A program made the translations under genes and the position numbers. DNA of 64,000 nucleotides, from UHGV virus genome UHGV-1366919; one strand, given 5' to 3'. Source of the DNA: a virus. The notes under the pieces were generated by a model. That model saw only the letters and a program-made list of their open reading frames with translations. It did no database searches and had not been told where the DNA came from. Below, piece after piece: positions 6,889-54,428 of this stretch. Every line of letters begins with the position of its first letter. Position 1 is the stretch's first letter.

Positions 6889-8289
6889 TTAAACCCAGTT
6901 TCTTCGAACTATTTCACGAATTTCAGAAAAAGTTTGTTCTCGAATCAGTTTGCCATTCTCAAAAACTAGATCTAAAATATCTCTTTCAGAAGTTTCTTGA
7001 ATAGTTTGATATTTATTTATTTCGTTAAGAATCAAAGACAAACGCCCCTTCTTAGAAGCTTTTGACATATCCAATGGACGTTTTTGAACATCATGCCATT
7101 TATCGTCATACTTCTGAGCGGAACATTTAAAAGCAAACCGGCAAGTATCTCGGTTAATTTTTTGAAGAAGTCCTCCACCCATGCCAAAAGCCCAGTTTTC
7201 CGATGACCAGCCGTTTTTTGCAGATTCTTCAAGAATACGATCCATATCGCTAATATTGATACCATCACCCCAAAGAGCCCGAACTTGATCCGGAAGAACT
7301 TTGAATCCTTTATTGTTTACAGTATATCCGAAATATTGGCCGAGAAGTTCCAGTACCTGTTGAGATACTTTAATAATATCACCAGAATCAGGTCTGAATA
7401 CAATTCGTCCATTTCGATTGAGAATCAAATCCTTAAATTTTGTTCCGCAAACTTCAATGAATCGTTCATAATTGTATGAATCGATTACCATTGCCATAAT
7501 TCCGTCAGGATTCTTATTCAGCAGTTCTTCAACTACGCCAAACTCTCCTTCTTCTCCTCGAGAAGTCATGATGGAATGTTCAGTAGCCCTGATGCTATAT
7601 CCGAACATTTTATCAATATTCTCATTATAGTATCGGGAAGGAACAAGCAAAGCTGGAACGGTATCAGTCCCATTAAAATTCAGCAAATGGGCAGAGCCGC
7701 CCAGCATAGAAGCTTCAAAATTTTCAGTTCCCCGGCATCCAAAATCGTGAAGTTGAAAATTGAGAATATTATTAAAATCTTCTCCTTCTTTATCTGAGGT
7801 AGTTGTCAGCCAATTAGTTAACATTAACTTCCCATAATAAGAAGTTGTGGCGACTGTAATCGGGTACCATATATGAGTAAGAATAGTTTCGGCAAAATTA
7901 GTTAAGAAAGGAACTTTATCGTCAGTATTTTCAATAGTCATTAGAACATTGGAAATATCAATTAGGGAACCTTCTTTAACGGCCTTAATCCTAAGAGGAA
8001 GATGACCATTATATTTTTTAAGAATATATTCCCAACCTTCTTTATTAAAGATGCCAGGACCAATATGCCGAGTAATAAGATAATCAGCTTCATTAATCAG
8101 TTCCTGAGTAATAACAGGTCCTACAAAATATTTCTTAAGGATTGCCTGAAGGCCATAAAAAACAGTCTTAGGAAACTTAGAACCTTTACGGGCTTCGAAA
8201 TAAGAATATACTCCTTGAGTATTGTTAGGTAACATCTTGTCATGAGTATATTTGTAAGAATCAGCAGAAAATAAAATATTATCGGTCAT
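6889..8289 (-). CDS. nadV: nicotinamide phosphoribosyltransferase (NAMPT/NadV-type)
   Basis: 466 aa. Residue patterns (YKYTHDK..., GTDTV, FGMGG) are typical of the NAMPT family. It sits beside an NMNAT gene, as in phage NAD+ salvage pairs. Confidence 0.8.
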   Translation of the reverse strand: MTDNILFSADSYKYTHDKMLPNNTQGVYSYFEARKGSKFPKTVFYGLQAILKKYFVGPVITQELINEADYLITRHIGPGIFNKEGWEYILKKYNGHLPLRIKAVKEGSLIDISNVLMTIENTDDKVPFLTNFAETILTHIWYPITVATTSYYGKLMLTNWLTTTSDKEGEDFNNILNFQLHDFGCRGTENFEASMLGGSAHLLNFNGTDTVPALLVPSRYYNENIDKMFGYSIRATEHSIMTSRGEEGEFGVVEELLNKNPDGIMAMVIDSYNYERFIEVCGTKFKDLILNRNGRIVFRPDSGDIIKVSQQVLELLGQYFGYTVNNKGFKVLPDQVRALWGDGINISDMDRILEESAKNGWSSENWAFGMGGGLLQKINRDTCRFAFKCSAQKYDDKWHDVQKRPLDMSKASKKGRLSLILNEINKYQTIQETSERDILDLVFENGKLIREQTFSEIREIVRRNWV

Positions 8290-8293
8290 CGAA

Positions 8294-9199
8294 TTAAAGA
8301 GAAGAAATTAAAGTTTTGAATAATTGGCGATGAGCAGGATTAATGTCATCGATAGAAAGATCTTTGATATTGCAAAGATGCAACTCAGCAATATCATCAT
8401 GAGGAGCAGGATTACCCGAAACCCGGGTCATCAAAAACAAAGTAGTCATTACTTGTTCTACCTCTCCAAAATATCGCCAATCCTTAACTTTAAAAGATCC
8501 GATATATTTTTCAATCTTGCATTTCAGACCAGTTTCCTCTTGTGCTTCCCGAATTGCGGCTTCTTCATAAGAATTATCTTTAGGATCAATAAATCCGCCC
8601 GGAAACCTCAATGTTTTTTCACCGGGTTTTTTGGCAAGATAAATCTTTGAATAAGAATCATCTGTAAAGATTGCACAATCTACCGTGGGATAATAATAAG
8701 TCCAATTATTCTGAGTTGCATAGATACATCCTCGACGGAAATCTTCAGAAGTACCAATATTCTTTTTCAGTTCTTCTCGCAACTTTGTTCCAGATAATGT
8801 CAATTTTTGCTGGTATTCATAAGTCTCAAATTGACCGGTATAATGTTCAATAAAACTGTCTCTGGACCCATAAAGAATAACATCTGAATTACCATTAGTA
8901 ATCGCCAAGATTTGTTTATCAAGGTCAGAAGACCATTCTTCATCGGACATTACATCTGTTTTATAACAGATTTCAAACTTACCCGGATATTCTTCTTCAA
9001 TCATCCTTTTCCTGGAAACATAAGGAAGAGGATTATTCTTTGTACACCGAACATCTCTCGGAGGATTACCGAGAACAAGAATGTTCATGTAATGATTCTG
9101 ACTAAGGACAAAATCTAAAATTTCTTTATGTCCTTCCGTTAATTTATGTACTTGAAACCGGCCAACTATTACGCCGATTGCGTTTTGTTTATTTGTCAT
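8294..9199 (-). CDS. bifunctional NMN adenylyltransferase / Nudix hydrolase
   Basis: N-terminal GRFQVHKLTEGH matches the (H/T)xGH nucleotidyltransferase motif. The C-terminus carries the Nudix box GGFIDPKDNSYEEAAIREAQEETGL. Confidence 0.8.
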   Translation of the reverse strand: MTNKQNAIGVIVGRFQVHKLTEGHKEILDFVLSQNHYMNILVLGNPPRDVRCTKNNPLPYVSRKRMIEEEYPGKFEICYKTDVMSDEEWSSDLDKQILAITNGNSDVILYGSRDSFIEHYTGQFETYEYQQKLTLSGTKLREELKKNIGTSEDFRRGCIYATQNNWTYYYPTVDCAIFTDDSYSKIYLAKKPGEKTLRFPGGFIDPKDNSYEEAAIREAQEETGLKCKIEKYIGSFKVKDWRYFGEVEQVMTTLFLMTRVSGNPAPHDDIAELHLCNIKDLSIDDINPAHRQLFKTLISSL

Positions 9200-23765: not shown

Positions 23766-24611
23766 TCAGAAGGTGCCTGCAAAAAGCCTTCTTCGAATTG
23801 ACATTAAATCTTTTCCAAGATTATTTTCTCCAATCCCATTACAAACTCCAAAATAAGTATCTCCCCAGGTATTTTCTTCAATAAGAATTGATTCTCCTGT
23901 TCTCATTAATAGAGTTTTAAATGGTTCTTGCTTGAATTTTTCTTCACAAACTGCATACATAACCATATTTTTAATTCTATCCCAATCTTTTCGAAGGGGA
24001 ACAGTTTGACCTAATTTCCTAGCTTCTTTCGGAGACAATCCAATAAATTGGGCACGAATACCAAGATCTTCAGTCTTAAGAGCTTGATAAGCAGCTTCAG
24101 TAGAATTAAAAACCATTCCTTCCGCTATTATTTTAACTTCGGCAAAATTAGAAAGAAATTTAAAAATGCCTCTAAAATCAGCAATTATACGAGGATAAGA
24201 AAAGAAATATCCATTTGTTCCTTTAAAATTATTGGAATCAACAATATCCCAATATTTGTTATCATTAAAATTATAAACAAAAGCTTTTCCAAACAAAATT
24301 GGAGGAGGCTGATGAGAAATATTAGGCCTCCAAGCTTCCTGAAGAGTGACAGAATCAGCCCTATCTCTATAATAATAAGAAACAGAATTATCCTTTAAAT
24401 CGGAAGGAATCCATGAACCAGCGGCAAGTTTATGCGGACTTAACCTATGAATATTCCCATTTTTAATTAAAAGTTCTGGACAATCATTATAATGGCATAA
24501 AACATTTGATAAGAATTCCATATGATCAGAAGTTCTCATATCAAATAGAAACAATTCTAACCAAACTTCTTTAAGACTATCATAGATAAAAAGTTGAGTA
24601 GGATAATTCAT
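23766..24611 (-). CDS. NADAR (YbiA-like) domain protein with N-terminal extension
   Basis: FLSNFAEVKI...EAAYQALK...EARKLGQTVPLRKDWD...LLMRTGESILIE..WGDTYFGVCNGIGENNLG fits NADAR-family conserved blocks. Confidence 0.6.
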   Translation of the reverse strand: MNYPTQLFIYDSLKEVWLELFLFDMRTSDHMEFLSNVLCHYNDCPELLIKNGNIHRLSPHKLAAGSWIPSDLKDNSVSYYYRDRADSVTLQEAWRPNISHQPPPILFGKAFVYNFNDNKYWDIVDSNNFKGTNGYFFSYPRIIADFRGIFKFLSNFAEVKIIAEGMVFNSTEAAYQALKTEDLGIRAQFIGLSPKEARKLGQTVPLRKDWDRIKNMVMYAVCEEKFKQEPFKTLLMRTGESILIEENTWGDTYFGVCNGIGENNLGKDLMSIRRRLFAGTF

Positions 24612-25255
24612 TTTCTTTTAATTAAAATTCGTTCTTCTTTAGATATAGGATTAATTTGGCAACCTTTTATTTCAAATCGTTCTTTAAAAGCTTTTTGGTT
24701 AATATTCAAAATATAAAAATTCCTTATATCTAATCTATATTTTTGATAAATCTTGATTGTTTTTAATGAATATAATGTAGCGTAATTAGCTGACAAAGTG
24801 CAAAGACCATCAAATGATTGGCAAGAATAAAAATTAAAACCATCAAATATAATATACTTCTTTTTTAGAAGAGCAGCATGAATAACATTCCACCATTTAA
24901 TTAAATCAGGATATTTTTCAATTAAAGTTTCCTTTAACCGGCAATAAAATTTATAACCTTGTTGTGCCCTTTTACCCTCAAAAGCCAATTTTCTTTTATA
25001 TTCTTTAATTCTTTTATTGAGAATTTTAACTCGAAGGTTATTAAATCTAAAATGGAAAGAATCAATTAAAAGAACTGTTTCAGTATCAACCAACGATAAA
25101 ATACTTTTTCCAGGAAAAGCTTCCTTAAATCGGAGCCAATGATAAATGTAATATTCAACAAGCTTCTCAGGGTTTTCTTTAAGATGATCTTCTATACTCC
25201 TTCCTAAAGGCTTAATAAGAGTTTTATATAACTCAACTTGAGAAATCTTGTTCAT
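24608..25255 (-). CDS. hypothetical protein (215 aa)
   Basis: ORF; 4-nt overlap with the NADAR gene. Confidence 0.45.
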   Translation of the reverse strand: MNKISQVELYKTLIKPLGRSIEDHLKENPEKLVEYYIYHWLRFKEAFPGKSILSLVDTETVLLIDSFHFRFNNLRVKILNKRIKEYKRKLAFEGKRAQQGYKFYCRLKETLIEKYPDLIKWWNVIHAALLKKKYIIFDGFNFYSCQSFDGLCTLSANYATLYSLKTIKIYQKYRLDIRNFYILNINQKAFKERFEIKGCQINPISKEERILIKRK

Positions 25256-25499: not shown

Positions 25500-26612
25500 T
25501 TAGATGTTCATTAATTTATTATACACCTTGAAACCAATAGGTGTTTTGCGATAAATCATCCACAGTAGAGTTTGATTCAAGCTAGGATAAGTTTTCAATA
25601 ACTGAACTACTTCATGGGCATCTTCATAAATATTGATTTCTTTTAACCTTTTTTGACATTCTTTATAAGGAAGAACTACGAATTGTTCAAATTTTTTACA
25701 AACCTCAATCATATTAGGTTTAATATATTCTGCGATCTCATAGTCAAATTGTTTTTCTACAAACTCATAAAACTGCTTTTGAACTTGTTCAGCTTCAAAA
25801 GTTTCCGGATTGAGATAACCATGTTCATACATCGCTTCAGCTACTTTGAGTATAGAACTTAAGGTAGATTTCATCCGATGCAAAGTACAATACCAATCTG
25901 ATTTTATCTTTTTAAGAAGCTGTCCATTATTAAAATAAACAACAACTCCTTCAGCCGAAGTCCAGGATTTAATCTTTTCATTTAAATCAATGTAAGATTT
26001 AATATCCGGATATTCATATTGCCTTGGCCGTTTAAATTTATATGTATGAGCAATCGAGTTTAATTCTTTCTGAGTGGCATAAGAGTAATCTTTATGATTA
26101 ACCTTTCCAATCAGGAATAAATCAGGATTATCATACTTGAGAACAATCTGATTCGTTGGGGTTACCCATTCAAAAATCAAAGAAAAATCTGCAGTTTCGT
26201 AAGATTTAAAATATAATTCAATCTTGTACTGTTCCAATAAAGGATTAAGTTCGGAAGCATTTTTCTGTTGATATGCAGAAATAGTACCTCTGGTTCGAAC
26301 AATAAGTTTTCCTTTATATTTTGAAACAATCAGACATGAACCATCTAACTTTTCGGTTAGAACAAAATCTTTATCATAGTATGGTGCAACTGGTTCAAAA
26401 GCTGGCTGTTCATTAAAATTCATGAACTTTCTAAATCCCAATGAAACTGGGAATCCATCAGAAACCCGCCAAATAGAAGAACGATAAATCTTATTTAAAT
26501 CAGTAAATTTGGCAGAAATCAAAGGCGTAATCAGAACACAAAGGTCTCCAGCAATTTCTACTTCTTTAAAAGAAAATTCTTCTTCGGATTCTTTAAACCA
26601 CTGATACTTCAT
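25500..26612 (-). CDS. RNA ligase, T4 Rnl1-like (tRNA sealing)
   Basis: Motif I LTEKLDGSC resembles Rnl1 KEDGSL. 370 aa. Lies in a cassette with a kinase and phosphoesterases. Confidence 0.55.
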   Translation of the reverse strand: MKYQWFKESEEEFSFKEVEIAGDLCVLITPLISAKFTDLNKIYRSSIWRVSDGFPVSLGFRKFMNFNEQPAFEPVAPYYDKDFVLTEKLDGSCLIVSKYKGKLIVRTRGTISAYQQKNASELNPLLEQYKIELYFKSYETADFSLIFEWVTPTNQIVLKYDNPDLFLIGKVNHKDYSYATQKELNSIAHTYKFKRPRQYEYPDIKSYIDLNEKIKSWTSAEGVVVYFNNGQLLKKIKSDWYCTLHRMKSTLSSILKVAEAMYEHGYLNPETFEAEQVQKQFYEFVEKQFDYEIAEYIKPNMIEVCKKFEQFVVLPYKECQKRLKEINIYEDAHEVVQLLKTYPSLNQTLLWMIYRKTPIGFKVYNKLMNI

Positions 26613-26826
26613 ACTTCCAACTAATTATTCCATTTTTATGACAGACAGAAATTACTTCAATTTTAAATGAACAAGTATAAGTTATTTTAGTATTATCTTT
26701 AGATGACTCAACTGACAAATGAGAAATCAAATCTTTATGAGGCATATCAAGAGAAACATAACTATTATCTCTTATATCAACAGCCTCCCAATGAACCCGG
26801 AATTCATTCCAATAAAGAAGGAACAT
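26593..26826 (-). CDS. small protein, paralog of 26829..27074
   Basis: Shared pattern HWN..WEA.D and a conserved C-terminal Cys. Confidence 0.4.
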   Translation of the reverse strand: MFLLYWNEFRVHWEAVDIRDNSYVSLDMPHKDLISHLSVESSKDNTKITYTCSFKIEVISVCHKNGIISWKYEVSVV

Positions 26827-26828
26827 AA

Positions 26829-27074
26829 TTAGAATCCAGCTGGAACGCAGCCATTCTTAACCTGGAGGCTGCCGCCGGGAGTTTTAGTAATAGTAAATGT
26901 TCCAGAACGAGAAGGACATTTATAAATTACATAGGCCTCATTTTCAGAAGAAGAAATTGCAAGAGGCTGAGAAAGCTCATTTTCTCGAGGAATAGCCAAA
27001 CCGATTGCATTACCAGTCTTGGTGTCCTTAGCTTCCCAACGATTTGATGAACGATTCCAATGTACGATAATCAT
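26829..27074 (-). CDS. small protein, paralog of 26593..26826
   Basis: Tandem duplicate. Confidence 0.4.
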   Translation of the reverse strand: MIIVHWNRSSNRWEAKDTKTGNAIGLAIPRENELSQPLAISSSENEAYVIYKCPSRSGTFTITKTPGGSLQVKNGCVPAGF

Positions 27075-27333
27075 AATTTTAATTTCTAATTGTTAAATGT
27101 TATACTTTTATATTATTAAAACTCTTAATTTTTAGAGGTGTTCTTTACTTTTTCTAAATAAGCCTCAATTTTCAAAACTTCTTTATATGAAAATGATTTA
27201 TCTTTACACTTAGGGCAAATATGTGTTAATACATCTGGAACAATAATAACTTGACCTTTTTTGTCGGTGAAAACAAAATCTTCAATAACTTTTTGATAAT
27301 ATGGTTGCTAAATTCAATGAAATCTAATGAAAT

Positions 27334-28434
27334 TCATTGACGTTCGGCTTTTAGGTTTTGGGGACTATATACTCCCAAATGGAGAATGTTAATAGCTGCA
27401 TTAATATCTGCATCCATCTCAGCTCCACAAGTCTTACAGTGATATACTTCACCTTGTCGACTTGACTTATTAACAGTATTACAAACGTGGCATCGTTGAG
27501 ATGTATAAGCAGGAGGAACTTTAATGAGTAAGAAACCTTCTTCTTCACTAAATCTACCTAACTTATTCATTACTTTAATGTAACTCCACCTTTGTAACTT
27601 GTTGTTAAACTTTTTGGAAAATTTTTTACCTCGTTTTACGTTCTTAAGATTCTCAACTATAATCTGCCCACAATCTTTATGCTCATTATAAAACTTTTTA
27701 ACGGTTCGGTTGATTGCTTGATCTCTTTCAATTAATGCACGTTTGAAAGCTTTAGACCGTTGTTTCTTACGAGAAATCTTTTCATAGATTCCTTCTAATT
27801 CTTTGCCGTAAACCTTTCCGTCACTACATGCGAGTAGTTTCTTGTAACCGCAATCGACACCAATCGGTCTACCATCATGCTTCGCTACTTCTTCTTTCTC
27901 CCAGTAAAGACATAACATTCCATTATCTCGAAGCATCATTGTTCGATTATTAAACTCGAATCCTTGATCTTTCAAACAGTTACAAGCATAATGAAACTTA
28001 ATAGGAATATTGAATGTAAGATAACGTGTTTTTGTTTTAAGATAAGGAGAAAAAATACGAATAAAATAATCAAACTCACCTTCCTCACATTTTTCAATAT
28101 CCCATAAATGGTAGTTAATATTAACTGAATGAGATTTGATTATAGGTTTAGTAAATGGTTTGTGACATTTTTTACCTTTATATTTTGCTAGTACCGAACG
28201 ATAAGTTTGTACTGCTTCACGATAACAATCAACTCTCCAGTTAGCATTTACTATATCATTAAGAATTGGTAACTCTTTACTCGAAAGATTAGTTTTAAGA
28301 GGCAGTTTCTTTTCGTAAATGAGGTCGATATATTTCTGTAGTAACCATTGATAATCAGATACTATCTTCTTATACAATACCTTTTTACCGGTATTGGCAA
28401 ACTTAATTGTATGTGAAGAAGTACGTAATATCAT
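27334..28434 (-). mobile_element. tnpB: TnpB-like RuvC/zinc-finger nuclease gene (IS200/IS605-type accessory, OMEGA family)
   Basis: C-terminal CHVCNTVNKSSRQGEVYHCKTCGAEMDADINAAINIL (zinc finger plus RuvC-III). Imperfect hairpin caatgaaatctaatgaaattcattg (7-bp stem) at the 3' flank. Confidence 0.65.
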
Positions 28435-28565
28435 TATCTTATTTTATACGCAATTAAGTAAGGTAAAATTAGAACTTAAATATTTTTTAAGAAAAATGAA
28501 AGTTTTTATTATAAATTCATTTTATTTCTTTGAAACTAACGAATAATCAAAATGCTTTATCACAA

Positions 28566-29312
28566 TTAAAGCATAGAATCTTCTCGTCTGGGACAATATT
28601 GCTCATAATATGTCATTGAAAGTTCATTAAGACAAATACATTTACAATTTTTAAAATCAAAACTTTCATCTACATGATAATGTCCAAAGAACCAGAATTT
28701 TGGTTGGTAAATATCAAAGATCTTATTAATTATTAGCTGTTCTTCTTGAAGGTCATTACGCAAGTCAGCATCCTGCAAATACCAATAATCGAGGCGATTA
28801 TTAGAACACTTAGGAGGTAAGGGACCGCAATGGCTAAGAATACCATGAAGTCCTTTATTTTTAATAATATCTTTTTCAAGTTCATTATATTTGGGAAAAC
28901 TAATATTTTCATCAGCCCAGTAAGATCTTTCTATATCTCTAAAACATCTATCAATAGATGTCCCTCCTCCTATACACATGAAAAGATCATCATTTAATAG
29001 AAGCAGTTGATGATCTTTCAAATGAATAATATTCTCATATTCTTCATCAATTAAATCATCTTTCCAATGAGAAGGGTTGTCATGATTTCCTCGAAGCAAA
29101 TAAGCTTTACAATTAAGCTTTTTTAATTCATCATTAAGCCAGCCATAGTCAAAAGCATAATTATTATCATTAAAACCTACTCCAATATCTCCAAGAAGAA
29201 TCAAATGGGCATCAGCGATATTAAGATCTTTTATCTTTTCAACCAGCTGAAACTTTTTACCATGAATATCTCCAATGAGATAAATGTCACCTTCAATCTC
29301 AAGCATATTCAA
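28566..29312 (-). CDS. lambda-phosphatase-like (PPP family) metallophosphoesterase, candidate 2',3' phosphatase of the tRNA healing cassette
   Basis: GDIHG ... GDIGV ... LRGNHDN motifs. Confidence 0.65.
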   Translation of the reverse strand: MNMLEIEGDIYLIGDIHGKKFQLVEKIKDLNIADAHLILLGDIGVGFNDNNYAFDYGWLNDELKKLNCKAYLLRGNHDNPSHWKDDLIDEEYENIIHLKDHQLLLLNDDLFMCIGGGTSIDRCFRDIERSYWADENISFPKYNELEKDIIKNKGLHGILSHCGPLPPKCSNNRLDYWYLQDADLRNDLQEEQLIINKIFDIYQPKFWFFGHYHVDESFDFKNCKCICLNELSMTYYEQYCPRREDSML

Positions 29313-29778
29313 AATCAGGTTTAATTGTGCAAGTATTAAATCTATTCTTCATCCTTTGCATGGTTTCTTTTGGAATATCATGAATAGACCCATACTGAGT
29401 TGTCATCTTAATTACAAATACTTTTACATTATATTGCTTGGCTGCTAGAAAATAAGCTTTAAACTCTTTATCTGCAAGAAAAGTATTAGAACAAATACAG
29501 CTATGACCAGCTTTCAACCTAGAAAATGTCCTAGCTTGGCAAAAAATATGGGCGCTATGAAGATATTTTGGATTAAAATTATAATTTCCATCTTTATCTT
29601 CAAAATATTGGTCCGCTTCAAAATAAGGAATATTAAACTGACTCGAAACCTCCTTCGCCAAAGTCGTTTTGCCAGAACCCGGTAATCCCTGAATGATTAT
29701 CAGACAAGGTGCCTTCGTTGTCAGGATCATCTTTAAAATGTTCTTCAGCTTTTCGTTTTGCATGGAGTTGTAAGTCAT
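29299..29778 (-). CDS. P-loop polynucleotide-kinase-like protein
   Basis: Walker A IIQGLPGSGKTTLAK. The true start is probably internal (M17). The long ORF overlaps the upstream phosphoesterase ORF by 146 nt in another frame. Confidence 0.55.
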   Translation of the reverse strand: MTYNSMQNEKLKNILKMILTTKAPCLIIIQGLPGSGKTTLAKEVSSQFNIPYFEADQYFEDKDGNYNFNPKYLHSAHIFCQARTFSRLKAGHSCICSNTFLADKEFKAYFLAAKQYNVKVFVIKMTTQYGSIHDIPKETMQRMKNRFNTCTIKPDFEYA

Positions 29779-30403
29779 TATATTTTTCTTTTTTCCTTAA
29801 AATATCAAGGCACTCTTCCAAAGTAAAATAAATTCGATTCTTTAACTTCAACGCATTGTCAACTCCACAATCAAAAATTTTGCCAAATGAAGAATCATCT
29901 GCATTTAAATGAGGACTGCCCCCATGACAGTGCCCGCAAAGAACTCCCAAAGCGGCATGATCCCAATCCATAATTGGAAAATGAGAAAGCCAGACATAAC
30001 ATTTCTTGGAAATTCTCAATGGAATATTAGAACCTAAAAGGGCAAGATTTTCATATTCATTATTACTGGTACCGCCAAAAATAGTATTCAATCCGGAACA
30101 GTGGTTACCAGTTAATGTATAAATCTTTTTAAATGGAAAAGTAGAAAATATTTTAATAATATCCGCAGAAGCATCATTAAAGATATTATCTCCTAGAGAA
30201 ATCAAATAAGAATCTTTATTATTGATGGCAAGATTATATAATTGGTCCAGACAATAATCAGTGTATTCAGCACAAGAGTTAAATCCTCTTGCCCCGTAAA
30301 GAAATTCTTTGTCATGATTCAAATGAAGATCAGAAACAATAAAAATATTCTTATCATTCAATTCTTTAATCAACGGGCCAATGATATTATGTCTCAGAAT
30401 CAT
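29633..30403 (-). CDS. calcineurin-like metallophosphoesterase
   Basis: VSDLHLNHD ... GDNIFND ... GNHC motifs. Confidence 0.6.
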   Translation of the reverse strand: MILRHNIIGPLIKELNDKNIFIVSDLHLNHDKEFLYGARGFNSCAEYTDYCLDQLYNLAINNKDSYLISLGDNIFNDASADIIKIFSTFPFKKIYTLTGNHCSGLNTIFGGTSNNEYENLALLGSNIPLRISKKCYVWLSHFPIMDWDHAALGVLCGHCHGGSPHLNADDSSFGKIFDCGVDNALKLKNRIYFTLEECLDILRKKEKYNDLQLHAKRKAEEHFKDDPDNEGTLSDNHSGITGFWQNDFGEGGFESV

Positions 30404-30505
30404 ATTTTTTATTTTCTTCTTCTAGCTGTCTTTTGATAACTGGATCGCCTAGCCAGTATATAAAATATTCTTTATCATCCTGAGATTGAATCCAAAGATA
30501 CTCAA

Positions 30506-31958
30506 GGCTCTGTCCTACCACAGTGTTGATTTTTAAGGAATCTTTCATGCTGTAAGACTTAATGTGTTGATGTTACCATCAAGACAATGGGTGAAGCCCC
30601 ACCCTCTACACCTTGGTCGGAGACCGACATCGGGTGCTTCTTTTCTATATCGATTTTAATTGGATTAAACATTGATTTGTGAGGTGAGAATGTTTTGCCG
30701 AGACCTCTACGCAGTATGTTAGCGGCACCATTGATGTCGGCGTTTAACATGCATCCAACAGAGCTTACAAACAACCCACGTTTCTTTCTCTTACCCATAT
30801 ATTCATCATAGTGACAAATATCCTCGTCGTCAAGGAATGAGCATTTGGAGGTGTGAGACTCATTGTGAGTTTCCACATTGATACCGGCTTCACTTGCTTT
30901 GTAAGACAACATCCAAATGAGTTGAGAATGTGGAATGCTCACAAAGTTCTGATTGTTTCGTTTACCAATGTTTACTTCCTGCTTCCATCCATCATTATGA
31001 CCGATAAAGCAGTTTCCGATTTTGTTTTCTACCATCAAATCAACCACTGAACGACTAGCCTTGTGCATATAATCTTTTGTTTTGTTATTGCGCTTTCTAG
31101 TAAGTCTCCTGAGTTTCTTTGATGTATTCATATCTCTCTCAGCCAACTTAGATACAATTTCAGCGTAAGTCTTGTTATAATATTGGTTGATGCTCTTTAA
31201 TGGTCTGCCATTAACAAGGTGGGATATAGACCCCTCGTTTGAAGTTACAGCCATTAAGTTATCAATACCAATATCTATCCCTACTGCTTTGTTGTAGTCT
31301 AAGTCAACCGGAGAAATCTTTGTTTTGTAGAAGATTTGTATCTCTATACATCCTTGCTTTGGCACAAGACGAAGCTCTTGCAAGGAGGTGAGCTTCGTTT
31401 TAATTGAAAGCTTAAAGTCCTTGCGAATGTTTATCGTTCCGTCTTTCTGGATTTTCGCGTCATTATAAGAGAAGGCAACGGAAAATAACTTATCGCCATT
31501 TGCTTCTTTCTTATACCTGGGCATCCTTGGTTTCCCAGTGAATTTCTGTGGATTCTTCTTGTATGAGTTAAGAGACCTGAACCAAGTAGAGAATGATTCG
31601 GCACACTTCTTCACAGTTTGTGCTGCTTCGTTATCCTTTAACAACGATCTAAAATCTTTGTCGTTTAACTTCCTCATTCTGGTGATTAGGTCAAACACAG
31701 AGATAAATTTCTCTTTCCTGATTATGTCTGTGTATTCAGGAATGTTCTCGTGTTTGCCACTAAACGCTTGGCGGAGAATGTATAACGTTCTATTGTAAAG
31801 AGATGTATTCAGAGAGCATTCTTGCACAGCCCAACCATAGAAGGATGTCCCTTCTTTTATCTGGTGCGTTTCAACTCTGATTGCCTCTTCTTGCATTCGC
31901 TGTTGTATATATTATACCATAGGTTTATCAGAAATCAACACTGTGGTAGGACAGAGCC
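30506..31958 (-). mobile_element. tnpB: TnpB-encoding element bounded by perfect 27-bp terminal inverted repeats
   Basis: ggctctgtcctaccacagtgttgattt at 30506-30532 is the exact reverse complement of 31932-31958. ORF 30559..31896 (445 aa) ends ...CMLNADINGAANILRRGL (RuvC-III) with a zinc finger CSFLDDEDICHYDEYMG. Confidence 0.7.
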
Positions 31959-31968
31959 TAAATGTATC

Positions 31969-32475
31969 TTAACCGTCTCTGTATTCATGAACACCCATTC
32001 TCCACTCGGGATTTTCAATAAAATCTAAAACGTTATCTAAATCTGCATAAAAATCATTATCAAAAATGATTTCATCATCATATCCATCAGAATATATTGG
32101 ACGTTGAATATAGAATTTTTCATTCGAATAATTTAAATTAAGAATATATCCAGACCTAAGTTCTAGACGTCGAATAATTTCTTTATAAGTTTCATTCTCT
32201 TGAACCTCGGCATAAGAAATATATCTGTCATAATCTTCCTGATTCTGCCAAAAAGCCGGAATACCTGATAAAACTAAAGCAAGTTTGTTATCTGGGCTAA
32301 CATCCCCAGTTTCATCAATCCACCAGTCAAAATCAATATTGACAACCTTATCTTTATCGGCTTTGGAACGAGCCCAACCTTTAAAAGATATTCTTTCAGA
32401 CTTAATAGGGCAAGTATAAGAATGAACAGAAGATGAATTAGTTTCAAATACTCCAGAACGAGTTACAATTTTCAT
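31969..32475 (-). CDS. FETNSSS-motif family protein, paralog 1
   Basis: N-terminal MKIVTRSGVFETNSSSVHSY is shared with 32479..33102 and 33519..33944. Confidence 0.45.
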   Translation of the reverse strand: MKIVTRSGVFETNSSSVHSYTCPIKSERISFKGWARSKADKDKVVNIDFDWWIDETGDVSPDNKLALVLSGIPAFWQNQEDYDRYISYAEVQENETYKEIIRRLELRSGYILNLNYSNEKFYIQRPIYSDGYDDEIIFDNDFYADLDNVLDFIENPEWRMGVHEYRDG

Positions 32476-32478
32476 AAT

Positions 32479-33102
32479 TTAGCAAGAATAATATTCCGTT
32501 CTAATAATCATGGACCGATCAAGAAGGAATAGTTTAATAAGATTTTTTAAATTGGTATAAGTTGTACAATGTTTATCAAATAATTCAGGAAAGATAAATG
32601 GATTTTCTCCATAACAACCATTATTGATAGGAATCCACCCTAGTATTTCAGTAGGATTTTCTGGTTCTTTGAACATTTCACCTAGTTCAAATCCATTATC
32701 ACCGTATTCCTGTTGATAAATTTCTTTAATATCTTTTTGGAATTGAATAAAATCAGAATGATTAATCAATTTATCATAATTTAAACAAAATGATACATCA
32801 ACTTCATAGTAATCACTGAAATCATTAGTACTCCATTTGTCTAATTTATTTTGATCATGTTTATTATAAATACAATCTTGATAAAAAGGATAATAAGACT
32901 GGCAAAGAGCTAAAAACTTATCAGAAAATGTCCATATTCCTTCAAATTCAGAATAATTAAATTGAATTTCTTTATCTAAAGAACTGACTTTTCCAAAGAA
33001 AAATTCCCAGCCCGGAACTCTTCCTACTTGACATGTATGAGAAAGAACATGTTCTGAAGAACTATTCGTTTCAAATACACAATTACGAATTACTTGTTTC
33101 AT
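32479..33102 (-). CDS. FETNSSS-motif family protein, paralog 2
   Basis: N-terminal MKQVIRNCVFETNSSSEHVLSH. Confidence 0.45.
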   Translation of the reverse strand: MKQVIRNCVFETNSSSEHVLSHTCQVGRVPGWEFFFGKVSSLDKEIQFNYSEFEGIWTFSDKFLALCQSYYPFYQDCIYNKHDQNKLDKWSTNDFSDYYEVDVSFCLNYDKLINHSDFIQFQKDIKEIYQQEYGDNGFELGEMFKEPENPTEILGWIPINNGCYGENPFIFPELFDKHCTTYTNLKNLIKLFLLDRSMIIRTEYYSC

Positions 33103-33103
33103 T

Positions 33104-33454
33104 TTAACTTATTCTGAACCAGGCTTTATAACCAGGATAATTCTGAAGGCGCTTAGAAATAGTTGTAGTATCGCATTCAAAAATATTTGCAACTTCAGCT
33201 TGAGAAAAACCCATGTAATTCAAAGTTGCTGCAACTTCAACCATACGAGGTGTAACAACTACTTTACTTTTACGTCCTCCGTCAAGTAGTTTATTTGTTC
33301 GATTATTAACAGAACTAATTTCTACTTTAGTTTTACCTTTAAGCATATTAGCCTGATTTTTATTAAATCGAAATATATTTGTAACTACTTCAACAGGAAG
33401 TATTTCAGAAAGATTCTTAGCAGCTTGGATGTCTTCTTTATAAATTCTAGCCAT
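33104..33454 (-). CDS. putative HTH DNA-binding protein (116 aa)
   Basis: C-terminal GFSQAEVANIFECDTTTISKRL is HTH-like. Confidence 0.4.
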   Translation of the reverse strand: MARIYKEDIQAAKNLSEILPVEVVTNIFRFNKNQANMLKGKTKVEISSVNNRTNKLLDGGRKSKVVVTPRMVEVAATLNYMGFSQAEVANIFECDTTTISKRLQNYPGYKAWFRIS

Positions 33455-33518
33455 TTTATAAATTAATTTATATTCAATTTAATTGAAATTAATATCTTAA
33501 GATTAAAAGGTGCTTAAA

Positions 33519-33944
33519 TTAATTCCAGTTATTATCATTATCAATCATAATTACATAATGATGTCTTAAGAAATCGACATAATCAATCCCTTCTCTATCC
33601 AATAAATTACTTGATTGATGATCAATTGTAGAAGGTTCAAAAGATTCTTTAATATATATTTCAAAATTATTGCCAAAAGCATTATGAACTACTTCAGAAA
33701 AATGTTCTATTGAATACTCATTGACTATAAAATAAACATATAGATAATTTAATTTTTGTTGAAGTGATTTAATATCATTGCCTACCCATCCGTAAGATCG
33801 AGGATATATGTACAATTTCTCATCTTTTAATAGTTTATTAAATTCTTCGTCAACAGAAATATTTTGATTATCTTGTGCCAAAGATAGCGTATGGCATGAA
33901 GATGAATTTGTTTCAAATATATTTTTTCTAATTTTCTTTTTCAT
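33519..33944 (-). CDS. FETNSSS-motif family protein, paralog 3
   Basis: N-terminal MKKKIRKNIFETNSSSCHTLS. Confidence 0.45.
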   Translation of the reverse strand: MKKKIRKNIFETNSSSCHTLSLAQDNQNISVDEEFNKLLKDEKLYIYPRSYGWVGNDIKSLQQKLNYLYVYFIVNEYSIEHFSEVVHNAFGNNFEIYIKESFEPSTIDHQSSNLLDREGIDYVDFLRHHYVIMIDNDNNWN

Positions 33945-38665: not shown

Positions 38666-39784
38666 TTATATTTGTAAGTGCTTAGAAATTAAATCTTTAA
38701 TTTGTTGATTGTTCTTTTTCCAATCATTTTCCCAAACTTCAATTAATTTGATACCATTTTCTTTACAAGCTTTTCGTTTATTCTTGTGATAACCTGGTTC
38801 TTTCTCTTCGTGAAATTGATGCCAATATTCACCATTATATTCAAAAGCTAATTTAAGTTCGGGAAGATAAATGTCCAATTCTTTTCCGCCAATAAATTTT
38901 CGAGTATTTTCTAAAATCTTGCCAGAATAAAGAGATTTAATATATTGGCAAAGCTCTTTTTCACCCTTAGAACGTTGTATCGCAATGGCACAATTAGGGC
39001 AACCTCTTCCGCTTAAATGAGCATAAGGAGCTTGTTTAAAAATATAATTACATTTATTACATTTAATTATAATTTTCTTATGAGAATGATTATAAGCAGA
39101 TAACGAATAATCATACCTATCTTTATCATGTACTTTTTCAGCTTTTTTAATAAAAGCTTGTAAAGTAGATATACGATTTAAATTTCGACATTTAATGCAT
39201 CCAACACCTTTAAGATGCTGTTTAGGTGTTTGTTTAAAAATATGGCCGCACTTATTACATTTAATAGTAACTTTTATAAGATAACCCTTATAAAGGGTTG
39301 AAGAATAATCAAATCGATTTTTTCCATGAATTTCTTCTGCCTTTTTAATAAATTCATCTATTGATAAATGCTGACGTTCCTTTCCACATTCTGGACAACC
39401 TGCACCGTTTAAATGATTTCCAGCTTTTTGCTCAAATATACTATCATGATAAAGACATTTGATTTTAACATTAGTATCATTATTAATATAGTTGACAAAA
39501 GAATAATCATAAATTCCTTTGCCATGAACAGATTCAGCTTTTTGTATAAATTCTTGAAGAGTTAATCTCGATTTTTCTGCATTTTTTGTTACTGCACATT
39601 TTGGACAGCCATGTCCATACCAATGCATATATGCAGCTTGTTCAAAGGTATGACCACATTTATTACATTTTATTATAAGCTTGGCTTTAGAACCCTGGTA
39701 AACTGATAGAGAATAGTCATACCTATCAGGACCATGCTTTTTTATGGCTTTTTCAATAAACTTTTCAGTTGTAAACTTTACCAT
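38666..39784 (-). mobile_element. homing-endonuclease-like gene: tandem zinc-ribbon repeats + C-terminal Vsr/DUF559-like PD-(D/E)XK nuclease (paralog 1 of 3)
   Basis: Five repeats of HG.xYDYS..Y.......I.C..HG.F.Q.P..HL.G.GCP.C. C-terminus GEKELCQYIKSLY...ELDIYLPELKLAFEYNGEYWH. Confidence 0.55.
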
Positions 39785-43395: not shown

Positions 43396-44301
43396 CTATA
43401 ATTTTTCTCTAATTTTCTGGAGGTGTTCAGATATTTCTTTTTTAATGGTTTCTGCATTAGTTTTCCATTGGCTGTCCCAAACTTCAATTAAAGTGATTCC
43501 GGCATCTTTACAAAGTTGCCTTTTATTTTCATGATAGCCAGGTTCTTTTTCTTCATGTATTTTATGCCAGTATTCGCCATTATATTCAAGGGCAAGTTTT
43601 AATTCAGGAAGATAAATATCCAATTCTTTTCGACCAATAAATTTTCTTGTATTTTCGAGAATTTCTCCAGGATAAATTGATTTGATAAAATCGCATAACT
43701 CCTTTTCACCCTTAGATTTCTTTTCATGAAGGGCACATTTTAAACATCCCCGCCCAGTTAAGTGATTATACGCCATTTGAGCAAATTTACCATGGACAGG
43801 ACAAATAATAATCACATTTGTTTCTGCATTAATATAAATTGTTTTCGAATAATCGAATTTATGTCCATGCACTTTTTGAGCACGGTTAATAAATTCTTTT
43901 GTGGTTAAACGCTCCAATCCTACGCAACTTTTGCATCCATGCCCCCTTAAATGATTGATGGGATATTGCTGAAAAGGTCCATGAACAGGGCAAATAATAG
44001 GTACTTTTGCATGATTATTTTTATAGTTTACTTTAGAATAATCATATTTGTTCCCATGAACCTCTCTTGCTTTCTTTATAAACTTCTCAGTCGTTAAAGA
44101 TTTTGCATCAACTGCACATTTAAAACATCCCTGACCTCGTAAATGGGCTCCGGCTCTTTGTTGGAAAGGTCCATGAACCGGGCAAATAACAGTTATAGAA
44201 CTATAAGCATTTTTATAATTTACTTCAGAATAATCAAAAAAGTCTCCATGTATTTTTCTAGCCCTGTCAATAAAAATTTCAGTGGTTATTCTGTTGGGCA
44301 T
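43396..44301 (-). mobile_element. homing-endonuclease-like gene, paralog 2 (zinc-ribbon repeats + Vsr-like nuclease)
   Basis: Repeats CPVHGPFQQ..HLRGHGC..C x4. C-terminus GEKELCDFIKSIYPGEILENTRKFIGRKELDIYLPELKLALEYNGEYWH. Confidence 0.55.
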
Positions 44302-44376: not shown

Positions 44377-45981
44377 TCACTTTTCAGATTGTTCATCAAC
44401 CAAAAATGTTTCTGTTGTTAGAATCAAACCTGCCGATGCAGCGGCGTTTTCAATTGCGCAACGACATACACTAAATGGATCAATAATTCCCGCTTCTAAC
44501 ATGTCTACTAACTTTTGCGTCTTAATATCAAACCCAATACTGCCTTTAGCTTTTGCGACCTTTTCGATGATAACATCCGGCCGTTCAACTCCGGCATTCT
44601 CAAGAAGAGTCTTAAGAGGAATGTCAAGAACCTTTCGCATCAGGTTAATACCAGCATTAAAAGATTCATCCCCTGTTTCAAACTTAATAGACTTATTCTC
44701 TTTAATCTTAGCAAGAACAGATCCTCCCCCTGGAATAACTCCGGATCGTAAAGCTGCTTGACAGGCACATACCGCATCATCTACCCGGTCCTTAATTTCA
44801 TTTAATTCAGATTCAGAATTACCTCCGATATTAAGAACACATACTCCTTGGGCAAGCTTGGCAATTCGCTTATTAAGCACATCTTCTTCCCATGTGCCGG
44901 GACTGCAATTATCTCGTTCCTCCTTAAGCAAATCAATATGTTCTTTAAGCCTTTGAGGATTTCCTCCGCCTTTTAAGAAAGTTGTATATCGTTTATCACA
45001 AACAATCTTTTCACAGGTGGCAAAATCTTCCTCTCTAATAGAATTAAAATCACGTGAAAGAAGTTCAGTAAAATATGTACCTCCTAAAGTAATTTCAAGA
45101 TCTTCCATTTCCCTCTTCATGCCGTCTCCATATCCTGGACACTTAATGGCACAAATGTTAATAATGCCTTTAATCTTATTAATGACAAGAGTTTGAAGAA
45201 CTTCGGATTCAATATCCGGAGCGATAATAAACAAAGGCCTTCCGCGAAGTTCTTTAGTATTAAAGACTTTCTGAAGAATAGGCATAATTTGCTGATTATT
45301 TGTCAATTTAATTCCAGATAAAAGAATTAAGGGATTTTCAAGAATACATTCTTGTTTAGTCGTATTATTGACAAAATAAGAACTCATCCAGCCTCGAGGA
45401 ACTCGTAAACCTGCAATAAACTGAGAAGAAGATTCATTGCTCCTGCTGTCATTAATAGTAATGGAACCATCCAAACCTACTTTTTCAACAGCTTCAGAAA
45501 CAAGATGTGCAATTTCTTTATCCCAGTTGGTAGAAACTAAAGCAATTTGGTGAATCTGTTCTGGAGAACATTCCTGCTTAATATTTTCTTTAATATAGTT
45601 GGCAATTGTCTTTGCCGCTGAAATAACTCCGCGTTGAATTGAAATCGGATTATAACCTGTTTCAATCAGCTTCATGCCTTCAGATGCAATAGCCTCAGTG
45701 AGGATTGCGCTGGTACTGGTCCCATCACCAGCCTGGTGCGCTGATTGCTCGGATGCTTGACGAATAATATCTGCACCCATTTTTTCAAGTACATCAGGCG
45801 GATTTACATGGCGAGCTACTGTAACGCCGTCTTTTGTAATATATGTCGCATTACCCATTCGATATATTACATTTCTACCGCCAGGCCCGAGCGTCGAAGA
45901 AACTGCATTAGCAAGTTTCTTTACACCATTAAGCAGTTTCTTCCTGCCTTCATTTCCCATATAAATGTTTTGTTGAATCAT
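44377..45981 (-). CDS. groEL: chaperonin GroEL (Hsp60)
   Basis: LGPGGRNV, ITKDGVTVAR, AGDGTSTSAIL and the overall length (534 aa) are diagnostic. The C-terminal GGM repeat is absent. Confidence 0.9.
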   Translation of the reverse strand: MIQQNIYMGNEGRKKLLNGVKKLANAVSSTLGPGGRNVIYRMGNATYITKDGVTVARHVNPPDVLEKMGADIIRQASEQSAHQAGDGTSTSAILTEAIASEGMKLIETGYNPISIQRGVISAAKTIANYIKENIKQECSPEQIHQIALVSTNWDKEIAHLVSEAVEKVGLDGSITINDSRSNESSSQFIAGLRVPRGWMSSYFVNNTTKQECILENPLILLSGIKLTNNQQIMPILQKVFNTKELRGRPLFIIAPDIESEVLQTLVINKIKGIINICAIKCPGYGDGMKREMEDLEITLGGTYFTELLSRDFNSIREEDFATCEKIVCDKRYTTFLKGGGNPQRLKEHIDLLKEERDNCSPGTWEEDVLNKRIAKLAQGVCVLNIGGNSESELNEIKDRVDDAVCACQAALRSGVIPGGGSVLAKIKENKSIKFETGDESFNAGINLMRKVLDIPLKTLLENAGVERPDVIIEKVAKAKGSIGFDIKTQKLVDMLEAGIIDPFSVCRCAIENAAASAGLILTTETFLVDEQSEK

Positions 45982-47069
45982 GATTTACAATTATTATAGC
46001 ATGTTTCTTTGATAAACTTTTTTAATTTTTCCTTATTCTTTCGCCACTGAGTATCTAAAATTTCTATTAATTTTATACCTTTTTTCTCACAATCTTTTTT
46101 CTTTTGAACATGATAGCCTGGATATTTTTCTTCCTTTAACTTATGATGGTAATCACCGTTGTATTCAAAGGCTAGATTTAATTCAGGAAGATAAACATCA
46201 AGTTCTTTTTTTCCAATAATATCTCTTGGGTTTTCTTGAACCTCGCCTGGATAAATTGATTTAATATATTGACAAAGTTCTATTTCACCTTTAGATCTTT
46301 TTGATGCCGCTAAGCATTTAGGGCAACCGCTTCCGCGTAGATGCGTATTGGGCAACTGTAAAAATGGGCCATGTTTTTTACAAGTTATAATAATTTTTGT
46401 TTTTGCATTTTTATAAGCTACCAAAGAATAATCATACTTGTCTCCGTGAGTAGCTCTAGCTTTTTCTATAAATGCTTCAATAGTTCTCTTATTATTTCCG
46501 GCACAAAATGGGCAGCCGGAGCCTGAAAAATGCTTATCAGGGCGTTGTTCAAAAACTCCATGTATGGGACATATAATTTTTACTTTTGTTCTTTTATTTT
46601 TATAAATTACTAAAGAATAATCATATTTGGTTCCATGAACTTCAATAAATCTTTTTCTAATCTCTTCCTCAGTTAAAAACTGATTTTTAATTGCACATTT
46701 TTTACATCCTTTTCCTATTAAATGGCTTGATGGATCTTGCTTAAGAGTACAACCACATTTATTACATTTTATGATTACCTCGGTTGTTGAATTTATATAA
46801 TCAACTAAAGAATAATCATATCGGCCTTTCCCATGAATTTCTTCAGCTTTTTCTATAAATTCTTCTGTAGTCCTGTTAAATCCTTTACATTTAGGACAAC
46901 CATGGCCCATTAAATGAATGTTGGGAATTTGCTCAAAGTAGCCATGTATGGGACAAAATATTTTAATTAATGTTTTTGTGTTAAAATATACAACTTCAGA
47001 ATAACCATACTTATTGCCATGTATTTCAATAGCTTTTTTAATAAACTCTTTAGTTGTTAATCTTTTCAC
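45978..47069 (-). mobile_element. homing-endonuclease-like gene, paralog 3 (zinc-ribbon repeats + Vsr-like nuclease)
   Basis: Same repeat architecture. C-terminus GEIELCQYIKSIYPGEVQENPRDIIGKKELDVYLPELNLAFEYNGDYHH. 4-nt overlap with groEL. Confidence 0.55.
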
Positions 47070-53285: not shown

Positions 53286-54428
53286 TTATTTTCTAATTGC
53301 TTTAAACTTCCCAAACCTAGGTACATTAAGATCAGGAGTTAAATCCTGATAAATGATAGTTGCCATCTTGCCTTCATAAAGTGCTCGATTTTTGAAAAAT
53401 TCACGTTTAGCAGGTTCATCCCAGCCTTTACCCATACCTACTGAAAATTGAACTCCATTTTCATCTTCACAAATTATTTGTGCTGCTTGTCCGGCATGAT
53501 TACCCCGTCCATCAAGAATTTGAACAATCTTATATTCGCTATCTTGAAATCGCTTATACTTTACAAGATTAGAAGAACGTCCTTCATCATAAGTCATCTC
53601 GGGATTACGAAGCATAATTCCTTCAAATCCATTTTCGATTGCATCATCTAAATAAGCTTCTACCTCTTCAAAAGAATTAACTTCAAATTGAGTAACACCC
53701 AAACTATACTTTAATGTAATATTATTAATCTGAAGGGGATAAAGATGATGACAACATTGATTAAGCTTGGTATGCTTATTACGGTCCTTATAAGGAATCT
53801 TTGTATTTCGTTCCGCAAAATCAAAAGCATGAAATTTAATAATGCTTTTTGTTTTTGCCAGGAATTCTTCAGTAATATTCTTAGTTCTAGAAATCAAAGA
53901 TGCAACTTGATTAAAATCATCTCTAAGTTCATGAGAATATAATTCTCCATCAATAATTGCATTAGGATTAGCAATGAAATAAGGTTTCAACTCCTCAAAT
54001 ACATGAGGGCATGAAAGAATCTCATGATGAGTCCTTGAAAACATTCCTTTAGCACAAATATAACATCTAAAGCCATCTAATTTGGCAGAAGCAAATTGAG
54101 GAAATTTAATAAATTTCTTTCTTGCTTTAAATTCTTTGGCAAGAGTTACTTCAAATTGTTTTTCAGTTGGAATAGTATCTTGAAACCCCCTTTTCCTTTG
54201 CTTTTCAATTCGAGATTGTACTTCTAAAGCACATTGCTGTTCAGGAGTAGTAGCATTAGAACGACCTTCATTCTTACCTTCACAATAAGTCGGTTCAGTC
54301 GTAGTAATAGCTCCCCCTACTCGACCAGAAGACATAGTATACCAATTACTGGAATCGTCATAAGATATACTCCATGTAATAGGATTGCCTTTCTTATCGA
54401 GATTAAACAATTCGAAAGATTTAATCAT
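53286..54428 (-). CDS. ATP-dependent polynucleotide ligase (KxDGxR nucleotidyltransferase; DNA ligase-like)
   Basis: Motif I SAKLDGFRCY. The 380-aa protein has an extra N-terminal region of about 100 aa. Confidence 0.55.
   Translation of the reverse strand: MIKSFELFNLDKKGNPITWSISYDDSSNWYTMSSGRVGGAITTTEPTYCEGKNEGRSNATTPEQQCALEVQSRIEKQRKRGFQDTIPTEKQFEVTLAKEFKARKKFIKFPQFASAKLDGFRCYICAKGMFSRTHHEILSCPHVFEELKPYFIANPNAIIDGELYSHELRDDFNQVASLISRTKNITEEFLAKTKSIIKFHAFDFAERNTKIPYKDRNKHTKLNQCCHHLYPLQINNITLKYSLGVTQFEVNSFEEVEAYLDDAIENGFEGIMLRNPEMTYDEGRSSNLVKYKRFQDSEYKIVQILDGRGNHAGQAAQIICEDENGVQFSVGMGKGWDEPAKREFFKNRALYEGKMATIIYQDLTPDLNVPRFGKFKAIRK

Follow-up and report, generated by a model that had tools for sequence, protein, structure and literature searches.

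Known RNA repair systems and their relation to the locus

In bacteriophage T4, tRNA repair by Pnkp (PseT) and Rnl1 counters the anticodon nuclease PrrC. Here we analyze a cassette of four predicted enzyme genes in a 64,000-nucleotide (nt) stretch of the virus genome UHGV-1366919 (the whole of this stretch is hereafter called the window), which a first-pass annotation had described as a tRNA healing-and-sealing cassette interrupted by a TnpB gene. The cassette shares with the T4 pathway an Rnl1-family ligase and a 5'-kinase of the polynucleotide kinase (PNK) clade. In T4, however, the phosphatase is a DxDxT domain of the HAD type that is fused to the kinase, whereas the candidates in the cassette are two stand-alone metallophosphoesterases (MPEs), denoted here MPE-1 and MPE-2.

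The Pnkp/Hen1 system of the Clostridium thermocellum type combines a kinase of the same clade with a binuclear metallophosphoesterase that functions as the 2',3'-phosphatase (PMC3675462). The fold matches of the cassette kinase and MPE-1 include domains of bacterial Pnkp; however, bacterial Pnkp is a single kinase-phosphatase-ligase polypeptide, whereas the cassette consists of four separate open reading frames (ORFs). The first-pass annotation equated the composition of the cassette with that of both T4 Pnk/Rnl1 and bacterial Pnkp, and this comparison holds in part: the healing half resembles bacterial Pnkp and the ligase resembles T4 Rnl1, but the T4 Pnk phosphatase itself falls outside the PPP/MPE class. 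In an overview of jumbo phages that is computational only (Iyer, Anantharaman, Krishnan, Burroughs and Aravind, 2021), RNA repair was found to follow the same logic, with occasional calcineurin-like phosphatases, and the ATP-grasp RNA ligases were reported to be accompanied by PNK, phosphoesterases, RlaP, TROVE-like proteins, NADAR and many tRNAs (PMC7824862). All these companions occur in the window, which comes from a large phage of an uncultured lineage. Finally, several cultured phages (CarlMeissner/Bas48, PAK_P1, F88) carry a split trio in which phrog_547, phrog_2071 and phrog_562 are encoded by separate adjacent ORFs, as is the case here, often near tRNA or NAD-salvage genes. Compared to this trio, the window adds an unrelated second MPE (phrog_1649), two small paralogous ORFs, a zinc-ribbon ORF and a linked NADAR gene, and further differs in the overlap of the MPE-1 and kinase genes and in two TnpB insertions; the kinase is only 31-43% identical to the examples from cultured phages.

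Sequence comparison and structural modeling make it likely that the cassette encodes a phage pathway of RNA break repair (healing and sealing) that is carried out by separate proteins; the substrate RNAs are probably tRNAs cut by host defenses. Under this scenario, a host ribonuclease, for example, an anticodon nuclease, would leave 2',3'-cyclic phosphate or 3'-phosphate ends along with 5'-OH ends; MPE-1, and perhaps MPE-2 as well, would strip the phosphate to yield a 3'-OH; the PNK-like small kinase would phosphorylate the 5'-OH; and the Rnl1-type ligase would reseal the break via ligase-AMP and AppRNA intermediates. MPE-2 is proposed to be the second end-healing phosphoesterase. The substrates (RNA, and tRNA especially), the way in which the MPEs share the work and all enzyme activities are inferred.

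The cassette and its recurrence in phages

The ORFs named in the first-pass annotation are all found where it placed them on the minus strand, which carries every gene at 23-33 kb of the window. In the direction of transcription, the cassette includes MPE-1 (29633-30403, 256 amino acids (aa)), a metallophosphoesterase of the phrog_547 or aq_1665 type; a small P-loop kinase of the PNK clade (29299-29778, 143-159 aa); MPE-2 (28566-29312, 248 aa), a second metallophosphoesterase that belongs to phrog_1649; and an Rnl1-family ATP-dependent RNA ligase (25500-26612, 370 aa), the predicted sealing enzyme. MPE-2 and the ligase are separated by a TnpB gene (27334-28434; TnpB-1) and two small ORFs (26829-27074, 81 aa, and 26593-26826, 77 aa). 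The two small ORFs are indeed paralogs of each other, as had been noted (BLASTP, 1e-10); neither matched any family in profile searches, and the former is found in all close relatives.

A 203-kb metagenomic contig with a 61% identical kinase (L008) encodes MPE-1, the kinase, MPE-2, a small ORF, the ligase, a 254-aa ORF and NADAR, without a TnpB gene. In a more distant 186-kb contig (L010), three MPEs (one of phrog_547 and two phrog_1649-like), cRec, the kinase and Rnl1 are found together, and in two other contigs (L005 and L012) the kinase adjoins an Rnl1-like ligase. Cultured phages show a similar association: Vibrio phage F88, Pseudomonas phages vB_PseuGesM_254 and PAK_P1, and the rV5-like Escherichia phage CarlMeissner each carry the kinase gene next to genes for an Rnl1-like ligase and a phosphoesterase. 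In all four, the phosphoesterase belongs to phrog_547, the MPE-1 type, with which the kinase and Rnl1 of phages are usually paired. The split MPE-1/kinase/Rnl1 trio is thus an already annotated module that recurs in unrelated phage lineages. The distribution of the activities over separate ORFs, to which the first-pass annotation drew attention, is accurate, yet such a split is not unusual, the same trio being annotated in many cultured phages. It is the gene neighborhoods, together with the gene fusions described below, that link the kinase and MPE-1 to Rnl1.

The RNA ligase

The ligase matches the Pfam family RNA_lig_T4_1 (PF09511) with an E-value of 5.6e-18 (66 bits, compared to a gathering score of 28.3) and phrog_562 at 7e-39. 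Comparison with the structures of T4 Rnl1 (2c5u, 3.6e-15, and 5tt6, ~1e-15) yields alignments that span motifs I to V. The KLDGS motif singled out in the first-pass annotation (motif I, residues 88-92) aligns with T4 K99-EDGS, that is, with the adenylylated lysine motif KxDG, and FEWV at 147 (motif III), EGVVV at 221 (motif IV) and KIKSDWY at 235 (motif V) align with FEFV, EGYV and KIKSDWY of T4, respectively. With all the nucleotidyltransferase motifs accounted for, the protein appears to be an Rnl1-family enzyme that has diverged in sequence but is still catalytically complete, in agreement with the original assignment.

The small P-loop kinase

The kinase, whose true start is probably 29763 or 29730, matches AAA_33 (6.7e-10), phrog_2071 (8.6e-32) and phrog_505, annotated as 'polynucleotide kinase' (1.8e-8). 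Because single-sequence searches of the PDB with the kinase and both MPEs yielded only P-loop-level or motif-level matches, family profiles and structural models were required. Across an alignment of 30 kinase homologs, no variation is seen in GLPGSGKT, the Asp of EADQYF, AH..C, SNT, H-V-P and M..R; this Asp aligns with D35 of T4 Pnk, the catalytic residue that activates the 5'-OH. The profile made from this family matched, over most of its length, PSTK (5.7e-7), T4 Pnk (1.2e-5), the CthPnkp kinase (2.5e-5), Pnkp1 (4.9e-5) and mammalian PNKP (1e-3), whereas adenylate kinases matched at the P-loop only. The AF2 model of the kinase (mean predicted confidence score, pLDDT, 91.8) is consistent with this placement: in Foldseek comparisons, the template modeling (TM) scores were 0.77 for PSTK, 0.71 for the CthPnkp kinase and 0.68-0.71 for T4 Pnk, and lower (0.5-0.64) for the adenosine phosphosulfate (APS), gluconate and adenylate kinases.

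An exhaustive profile search identified 1,754 cluster representatives of this family (E<=1e-30; clusters at 50% identity), most of which are stand-alone proteins of 125-150 aa, and the family is present in 594 cultured-phage records. The strongest matches include natural fusions with the Rnl1 domain RNA_lig_T4_1 (P0186), an MPE (P0242), HAD_PNKP (P0168) and CNPase (P0162). In P0242, the fused MPE belongs to the MPE-1 type (hhalign 80%, E 1.4e-5, compared to 6% for MPE-2). Of all the evidence that this family heals RNA ends by phosphorylating the 5' end of polynucleotides, the fusions are the strongest. By profile, predicted fold and gene fusions alike, the kinase is placed in the polynucleotide-kinase clade rather than among adenylate or thymidylate kinases. 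Of the two outcomes that the first-pass annotation had named as refuting its interpretation, a kinase of the latter kind and ligase motifs that fail to match Rnl1, neither was obtained.

The two metallophosphoesterases

Both MPEs were scored for the metal-binding motifs of the calcineurin-like superfamily (DxH, GD, GNH[D/E], H, GHxH). MPE-1 has no match in Pfam but matches phrog_547 at 5.6e-24, and the family alignment shows the complete set of metallophosphoesterase motifs (D25/H27, D72, N100/H101, H141, H158/H160), such that its description as a calcineurin-like phosphoesterase stands; the best relative of solved structure is aq_1665. MPE-2 matches Metallophos (1.8e-11) and phrog_1649 (8e-30), again with all motifs intact: GDIHG, GD, RGNHDN, H161 and GHYH (D15/H17, D42, N76/H77, H161, H211/H213). 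When the MPE-2 family profile was compared to the PDB, the best match was the RNA lariat debranching enzyme Dbr1 (4peh, 7e-11, full length); PP1 and calcineurin matched the N-terminal half only (1e-5 to 3e-7), and neither lambda phosphatase nor the CthPnkp phosphatase was among the top 60 matches. The label of a lambda-phosphatase-like enzyme that MPE-2 had received is thus no more than loosely apt: the N-terminal motifs are PPP-like, and the best full-length solved relative is Dbr1. Although both enzymes possess the full set of calcineurin-like motifs, they are not closely related to each other.

The Dbr1 match raises the possibility that only the kinase and the ligase repair RNA, whereas one or both MPEs destroy immune signals (cyclic or 2'-5'-linked nucleotides) or act on other 2'-5' linkages. 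The presence of two unlike MPEs in one cassette, which suggests two substrates, would fit this explanation, as would the prediction that calcineurin-like phosphodiesterases of jumbo phages degrade cyclic nucleotides (PMC7824862) and the occurrence of an MPE-2 homolog without RNA-repair neighbors in one contig (L022). However, in at least five independent lineages Rnl1 and the kinase have a gene of the MPE-1 type as their immediate neighbor, and domains of this type are also found fused to the kinase; in other contigs, homologs of MPE-2 adjoin an RlaP gene or are found near an AAA_33 kinase; and MPE-2, at 248 aa, is too short to accommodate the C-terminal domain of Dbr1. Altogether, we regard this explanation as unlikely. 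Somewhat less credence still is given to a combined possibility, namely, that MPE-1 is an ordinary healing enzyme and MPE-2 is a 2'-5' phosphodiesterase and that, separately, the deletion site described below is cut by a mobile nuclease of the phage itself. The targets of MPE-2 might then be, for example, a 2'-phosphate, 2'-5'-branched RNA-DNA such as retron msDNA, or 2'-5'-linked nucleotide messengers and, if this dual chemistry is real, the cassette would be an expanded counter-defense set.

Overlap of the MPE-1 and kinase genes

The kinase gene, in the +1 frame, overlaps the 3' end of MPE-1, by 146 nt if counted from the first ATG of the kinase and by 98 nt if counted from its Met17. A run of A residues, GGAAAAAAG, is located at ~29785-29795, just before the kinase start. 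The run reads A6 in the window and in two close relatives (L001 and L002), and A5 in two Logan contigs (L006:5668.. and L007:2735..), where MPE-1 and the kinase are fused in frame (P0007). The in-frame fusion is seen only in Logan contigs that bear other frameshifts, and the A5 state was accordingly judged to be an assembly or sequencing artifact. The MPE-1 tail, QLHAKRKAEE.F.DDPD, is kept as protein in 60%-identical relatives, and the N-terminus of the kinase is likewise conserved. On these grounds (the A6 state in L001 and L002, the conserved MPE-1 tail and the restriction of A5 to frameshift-ridden contigs), we rejected the possibility that a frameshift or recoding makes the two ORFs a single fusion gene, even though genuine fusions of an MPE with the kinase occur in other sequences (P0242). 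From these comparisons we conclude that the two genes form a genuine overlapping pair, neither a sequence error nor a recoding site.

TnpB elements and natural deletions

The TnpB-1 gene (NF040570, 109.5 bits, cut-off 100; Cas12f1-like_TNB, 5.7e-18) belongs to a 1245-nt element (27304-28548) that is oriented in the same direction as the cassette. Exactly this segment is missing from four genomes with 97-99.9% identity to the window (L001, L002, L016 and L018), and these precise empty sites bear out the earlier statement that the cassette is interrupted by TnpB. The junction reads ...TGATAAAGCAT^ATTATCAAAAAG, with CCAT also at the right end of the element, and the empty-site allele reads ...AAAGCAT followed by ATTATCAAAAAGTTATTG. 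An exact search of IMG/VR for the right end of TnpB-1 detected no further copy. The insertion lies 14-17 nt past the MPE-2 stop codon, within a 76-aa zinc-ribbon ORF (CxxC...CxxC) that is split into a 3' part of 58 codons (27125-27303) and a 5' part of 18 codons (28549-28606), the latter overlapping the 3' end of MPE-2. This ORF, which shows a weak match to the N-terminal zinc ribbon of MqsA (E 0.0088), is intact in five related contigs: L016 (7972-8202) and, as an annotated gene, L006, L007, L018 and L019.

Immediately upstream of the cassette is a second, only distantly related element, TnpB-2 (30505-31959, minus strand), whose TnpB gene (30559-31896; NF040570, 151 bits, cut-off 100; OrfB_IS605, 1.1e-20) precedes all the cassette genes in the direction of transcription. 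Each end of the element carries a 39-nt terminal inverted repeat (30505-30543 and 31921-31959); the two repeats show 87% complementarity and contain a perfect 27-nt core, GGCTCTGTCCTACCACAGTGTTGATTT. Such repeats are unusual among TnpB elements of the IS200/IS605 type. TnpB-2 is present in L001 and absent in L002, which has in its place 283 nt that encode the N-terminal part of an ORF; the intact ORF (L002:7016-7477) shares its C-terminus with a 53-aa remnant ORF upstream of MPE-1 in the window (30387-30548). Because L002 carries these 283 nt of an intact ORF at the site, TnpB-2 represents a replacement rather than a simple insertion. TnpA is absent from both TnpB elements, and a search of Rfam at gathering scores returned only tRNAs and no omega-RNA family. 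The relatives with empty sites show that both elements were acquired recently. TnpB-2, the split of the zinc-ribbon ORF and the MPE-1/kinase overlap were absent from the first-pass annotation.

Two of the near-identical genomes have, in addition, lost part of the cassette: L016 (204 kb) lacks the segment corresponding to window positions 29532-31831, and L018 (121 kb) lacks 29529-33850. These two independent deletions take out MPE-1 together with the half of the kinase that contains the P-loop, whereas MPE-2, the small ORFs, the ligase and NADAR are retained. The right-hand end-points, inside the kinase gene (window 29528-29531), are at most 3 nt apart, at GGACAT^TTTCTAGG; in the relatives themselves, they map to ~7047-7063 in L016 and ~7094-7095 in L018, with short microhomologies at the junctions. 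The coincidence of the end-points may reflect a break hot-spot or a site-specific break. The guide-like flanks of either TnpB, when compared by eye, do not match this hot-spot.

These rearrangements are compatible with the view that the cassette is decaying in this genome through TnpB insertions and nearby deletions and is no longer a coordinated unit: TnpB-1 parts the healing genes from the ligase and destroys the zinc-ribbon ORF, TnpB-2 truncates the upstream ORF, and the deletions in the sister genomes take out MPE-1 and the kinase P-loop. Nevertheless, despite both TnpB elements, the four enzyme ORFs are full length, with intact catalytic motifs, and read-through transcription is possible given that TnpB-1 is co-oriented with the cassette. 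Decay thus appears quite improbable and, in any case, pertains to the present state of the cassette and not to its nature.

Weighing the RNA-repair reading

Several observations weigh against the assignment of the cassette to RNA repair. Across the kinase family, R38 of T4 Pnk is replaced by a nearly invariant Phe and D85 by the Asn of SNT. Mutational studies have shown that R38 and D85 are essential in T4. Because equivalents of these residues are missing, the mode of substrate binding by the cassette kinase must differ from that of T4 Pnk. The ligase scores 81 bits (6.8e-23) against TIGR02308, far under the equivalog cut-off of 242 for T4 RnlA; sequence alignments end at about residue 290 of 370, and in the C-terminal ~80 residues no similarity could be detected to the domain with which T4 Rnl1 binds tRNA. 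In Rnl1, it is this all-helical C-terminal domain that confers specificity for tRNA. MPE-1 is not specially close to Pnkp or lambda phosphatases, and the nearest solved relative of MPE-2 is a 2'-5' phosphodiesterase. Furthermore, TnpB-1 may disturb the co-expression of the healing genes and the ligase; the loss of MPE-1 and half of the kinase from L016 and L018 implies that this part is dispensable at least in some settings; and a literature search found no biochemical study of phrog_547, phrog_2071 or phrog_1649 proteins.

A kinase that acts on nucleotides, nucleosides or other small molecules (for example, in NAD or dNTP metabolism), as part of a loose nucleotide-metabolism collection, would be in line with the missing R38 and D85 equivalents, a weak profile match to nicotinamide riboside kinase (residues 5-57) and the NAMPT and PRPP synthetase genes directly beside the kinase/Rnl1 module in PAK_P1-like phages, but is very improbable in view of the full-length matches to polynucleotide- and tRNA-directed kinases, with lower TM scores for small-molecule kinases, the fusions to Rnl1, HAD_PNKP, CNPase and MPE, and the separate nucleotide-metabolism genes at 57-60 kb of the window. 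RNA break repair by separate healing and sealing enzymes remains the reading that we favor.

Genomic context

Downstream of the ligase are a 215-aa ORF with no family match (24608-25255, minus strand) and a gene for a NADAR-domain protein (23766-24611, minus strand; PF08719, 3.7e-18), possibly with an accessory role; in the divergent relative L008, the NADAR gene likewise follows the ligase at this position. About nine tRNA genes are located at 17.7-22.5 kb, 3-8 kb from the cassette. An Rnl5/DRB0094-like ligase with a PHA02142 OB-fold N-terminus (9705-10718) and a nearby DUF2828/DUF7788 (Ro/TROVE-vWA-like) protein (11146-12630) may constitute a second RNA-repair module (9705-12630). The gene for the RlaP (RNA-ligase-associated Pol-beta) nucleotidyltransferase (54783-55829) adjoins a DNA-ligase-like gene (53286-54428) and neither of the RNA ligase genes. 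The first-pass annotation counted at least three RNA-repair modules in the window; two RNA ligases and RlaP can be retained from this count, but the third ligase is, by profile, an ATP-dependent DNA ligase. No methyltransferase that could correspond to Hen1, the 2'-O-methyltransferase partner of bacterial Pnkp, was detected among ~40 window ORFs in a scan that was not exhaustive, and scans for promoters and terminators gave no signal above that of shuffled sequence.

Genes for NAMPT and an NMNAT-like/Nudix protein lie side by side at 6889-9199 and form an NAD+ salvage pair. The nucleotide-metabolism genes at 57-60 kb comprise a weak thymidylate-kinase-like ORF, ThyA, DHFR and a MazG-like ORF. 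The segment 12680-17638, which has no counterpart in L002 except for a 59-nt match at 12982-13040, encodes a transposase of the IS1595 type (15169-16200) and a 440-aa repeat protein (13157-14479) with a C-terminal PEP-CTERM-like sorting signal (VPEPSTS...LLKRRRV). This segment has the appearance of cargo that is mobile or was acquired from the host, and may provide a clue to the latter. Another presence/absence polymorphism is the segment 22128-23736, which encodes an HTH/HNH-like 178-aa ORF, a 119-aa ORF and a short dCMP-deaminase-like ORF and is swapped for ~450 nt in L002 and L016. Three paralogous proteins with tandem zinc-ribbon repeats (38666-39784, 43396-44301 and 45978-47069), one of which is encoded directly next to GroEL, share a conserved C-terminal domain (KGEKELC...ELDIYLPELKLAFEYNGEYWH); DUF723 of Pfam is recorded for their 372-aa homolog in L016 and L018. 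The three genes are probably mobile and endonuclease-like. A nucleotide search against 50,697 phage records returned no match to the window, and, at the protein level, no match of the rIIA-like gene exceeded 28% identity; by these comparisons, the window belongs to a lineage without a close cultured relative.

Implications

The current understanding of phage RNA repair is unchanged by this analysis: the locus extends an already described, computationally known pattern. What is new here is the second, Dbr1-like MPE, the overlapping healing genes, the linked NADAR gene, the two polymorphic TnpB elements and the recurrent deletions. The phrog_2071 kinase family and its phrog_547 partner occur widely among phages, model coliphages and Pseudomonas phages among them. 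With the conserved synteny, natural fusions and natural knock-outs that the locus supplies, the prediction that an Rnl1 ligase is fed by MPE-based healing of RNA ends is easy to test. Furthermore, pairs of near-identical phage genomes with and without TnpB give exact insertion sites and are useful for studying the spread of TnpB.

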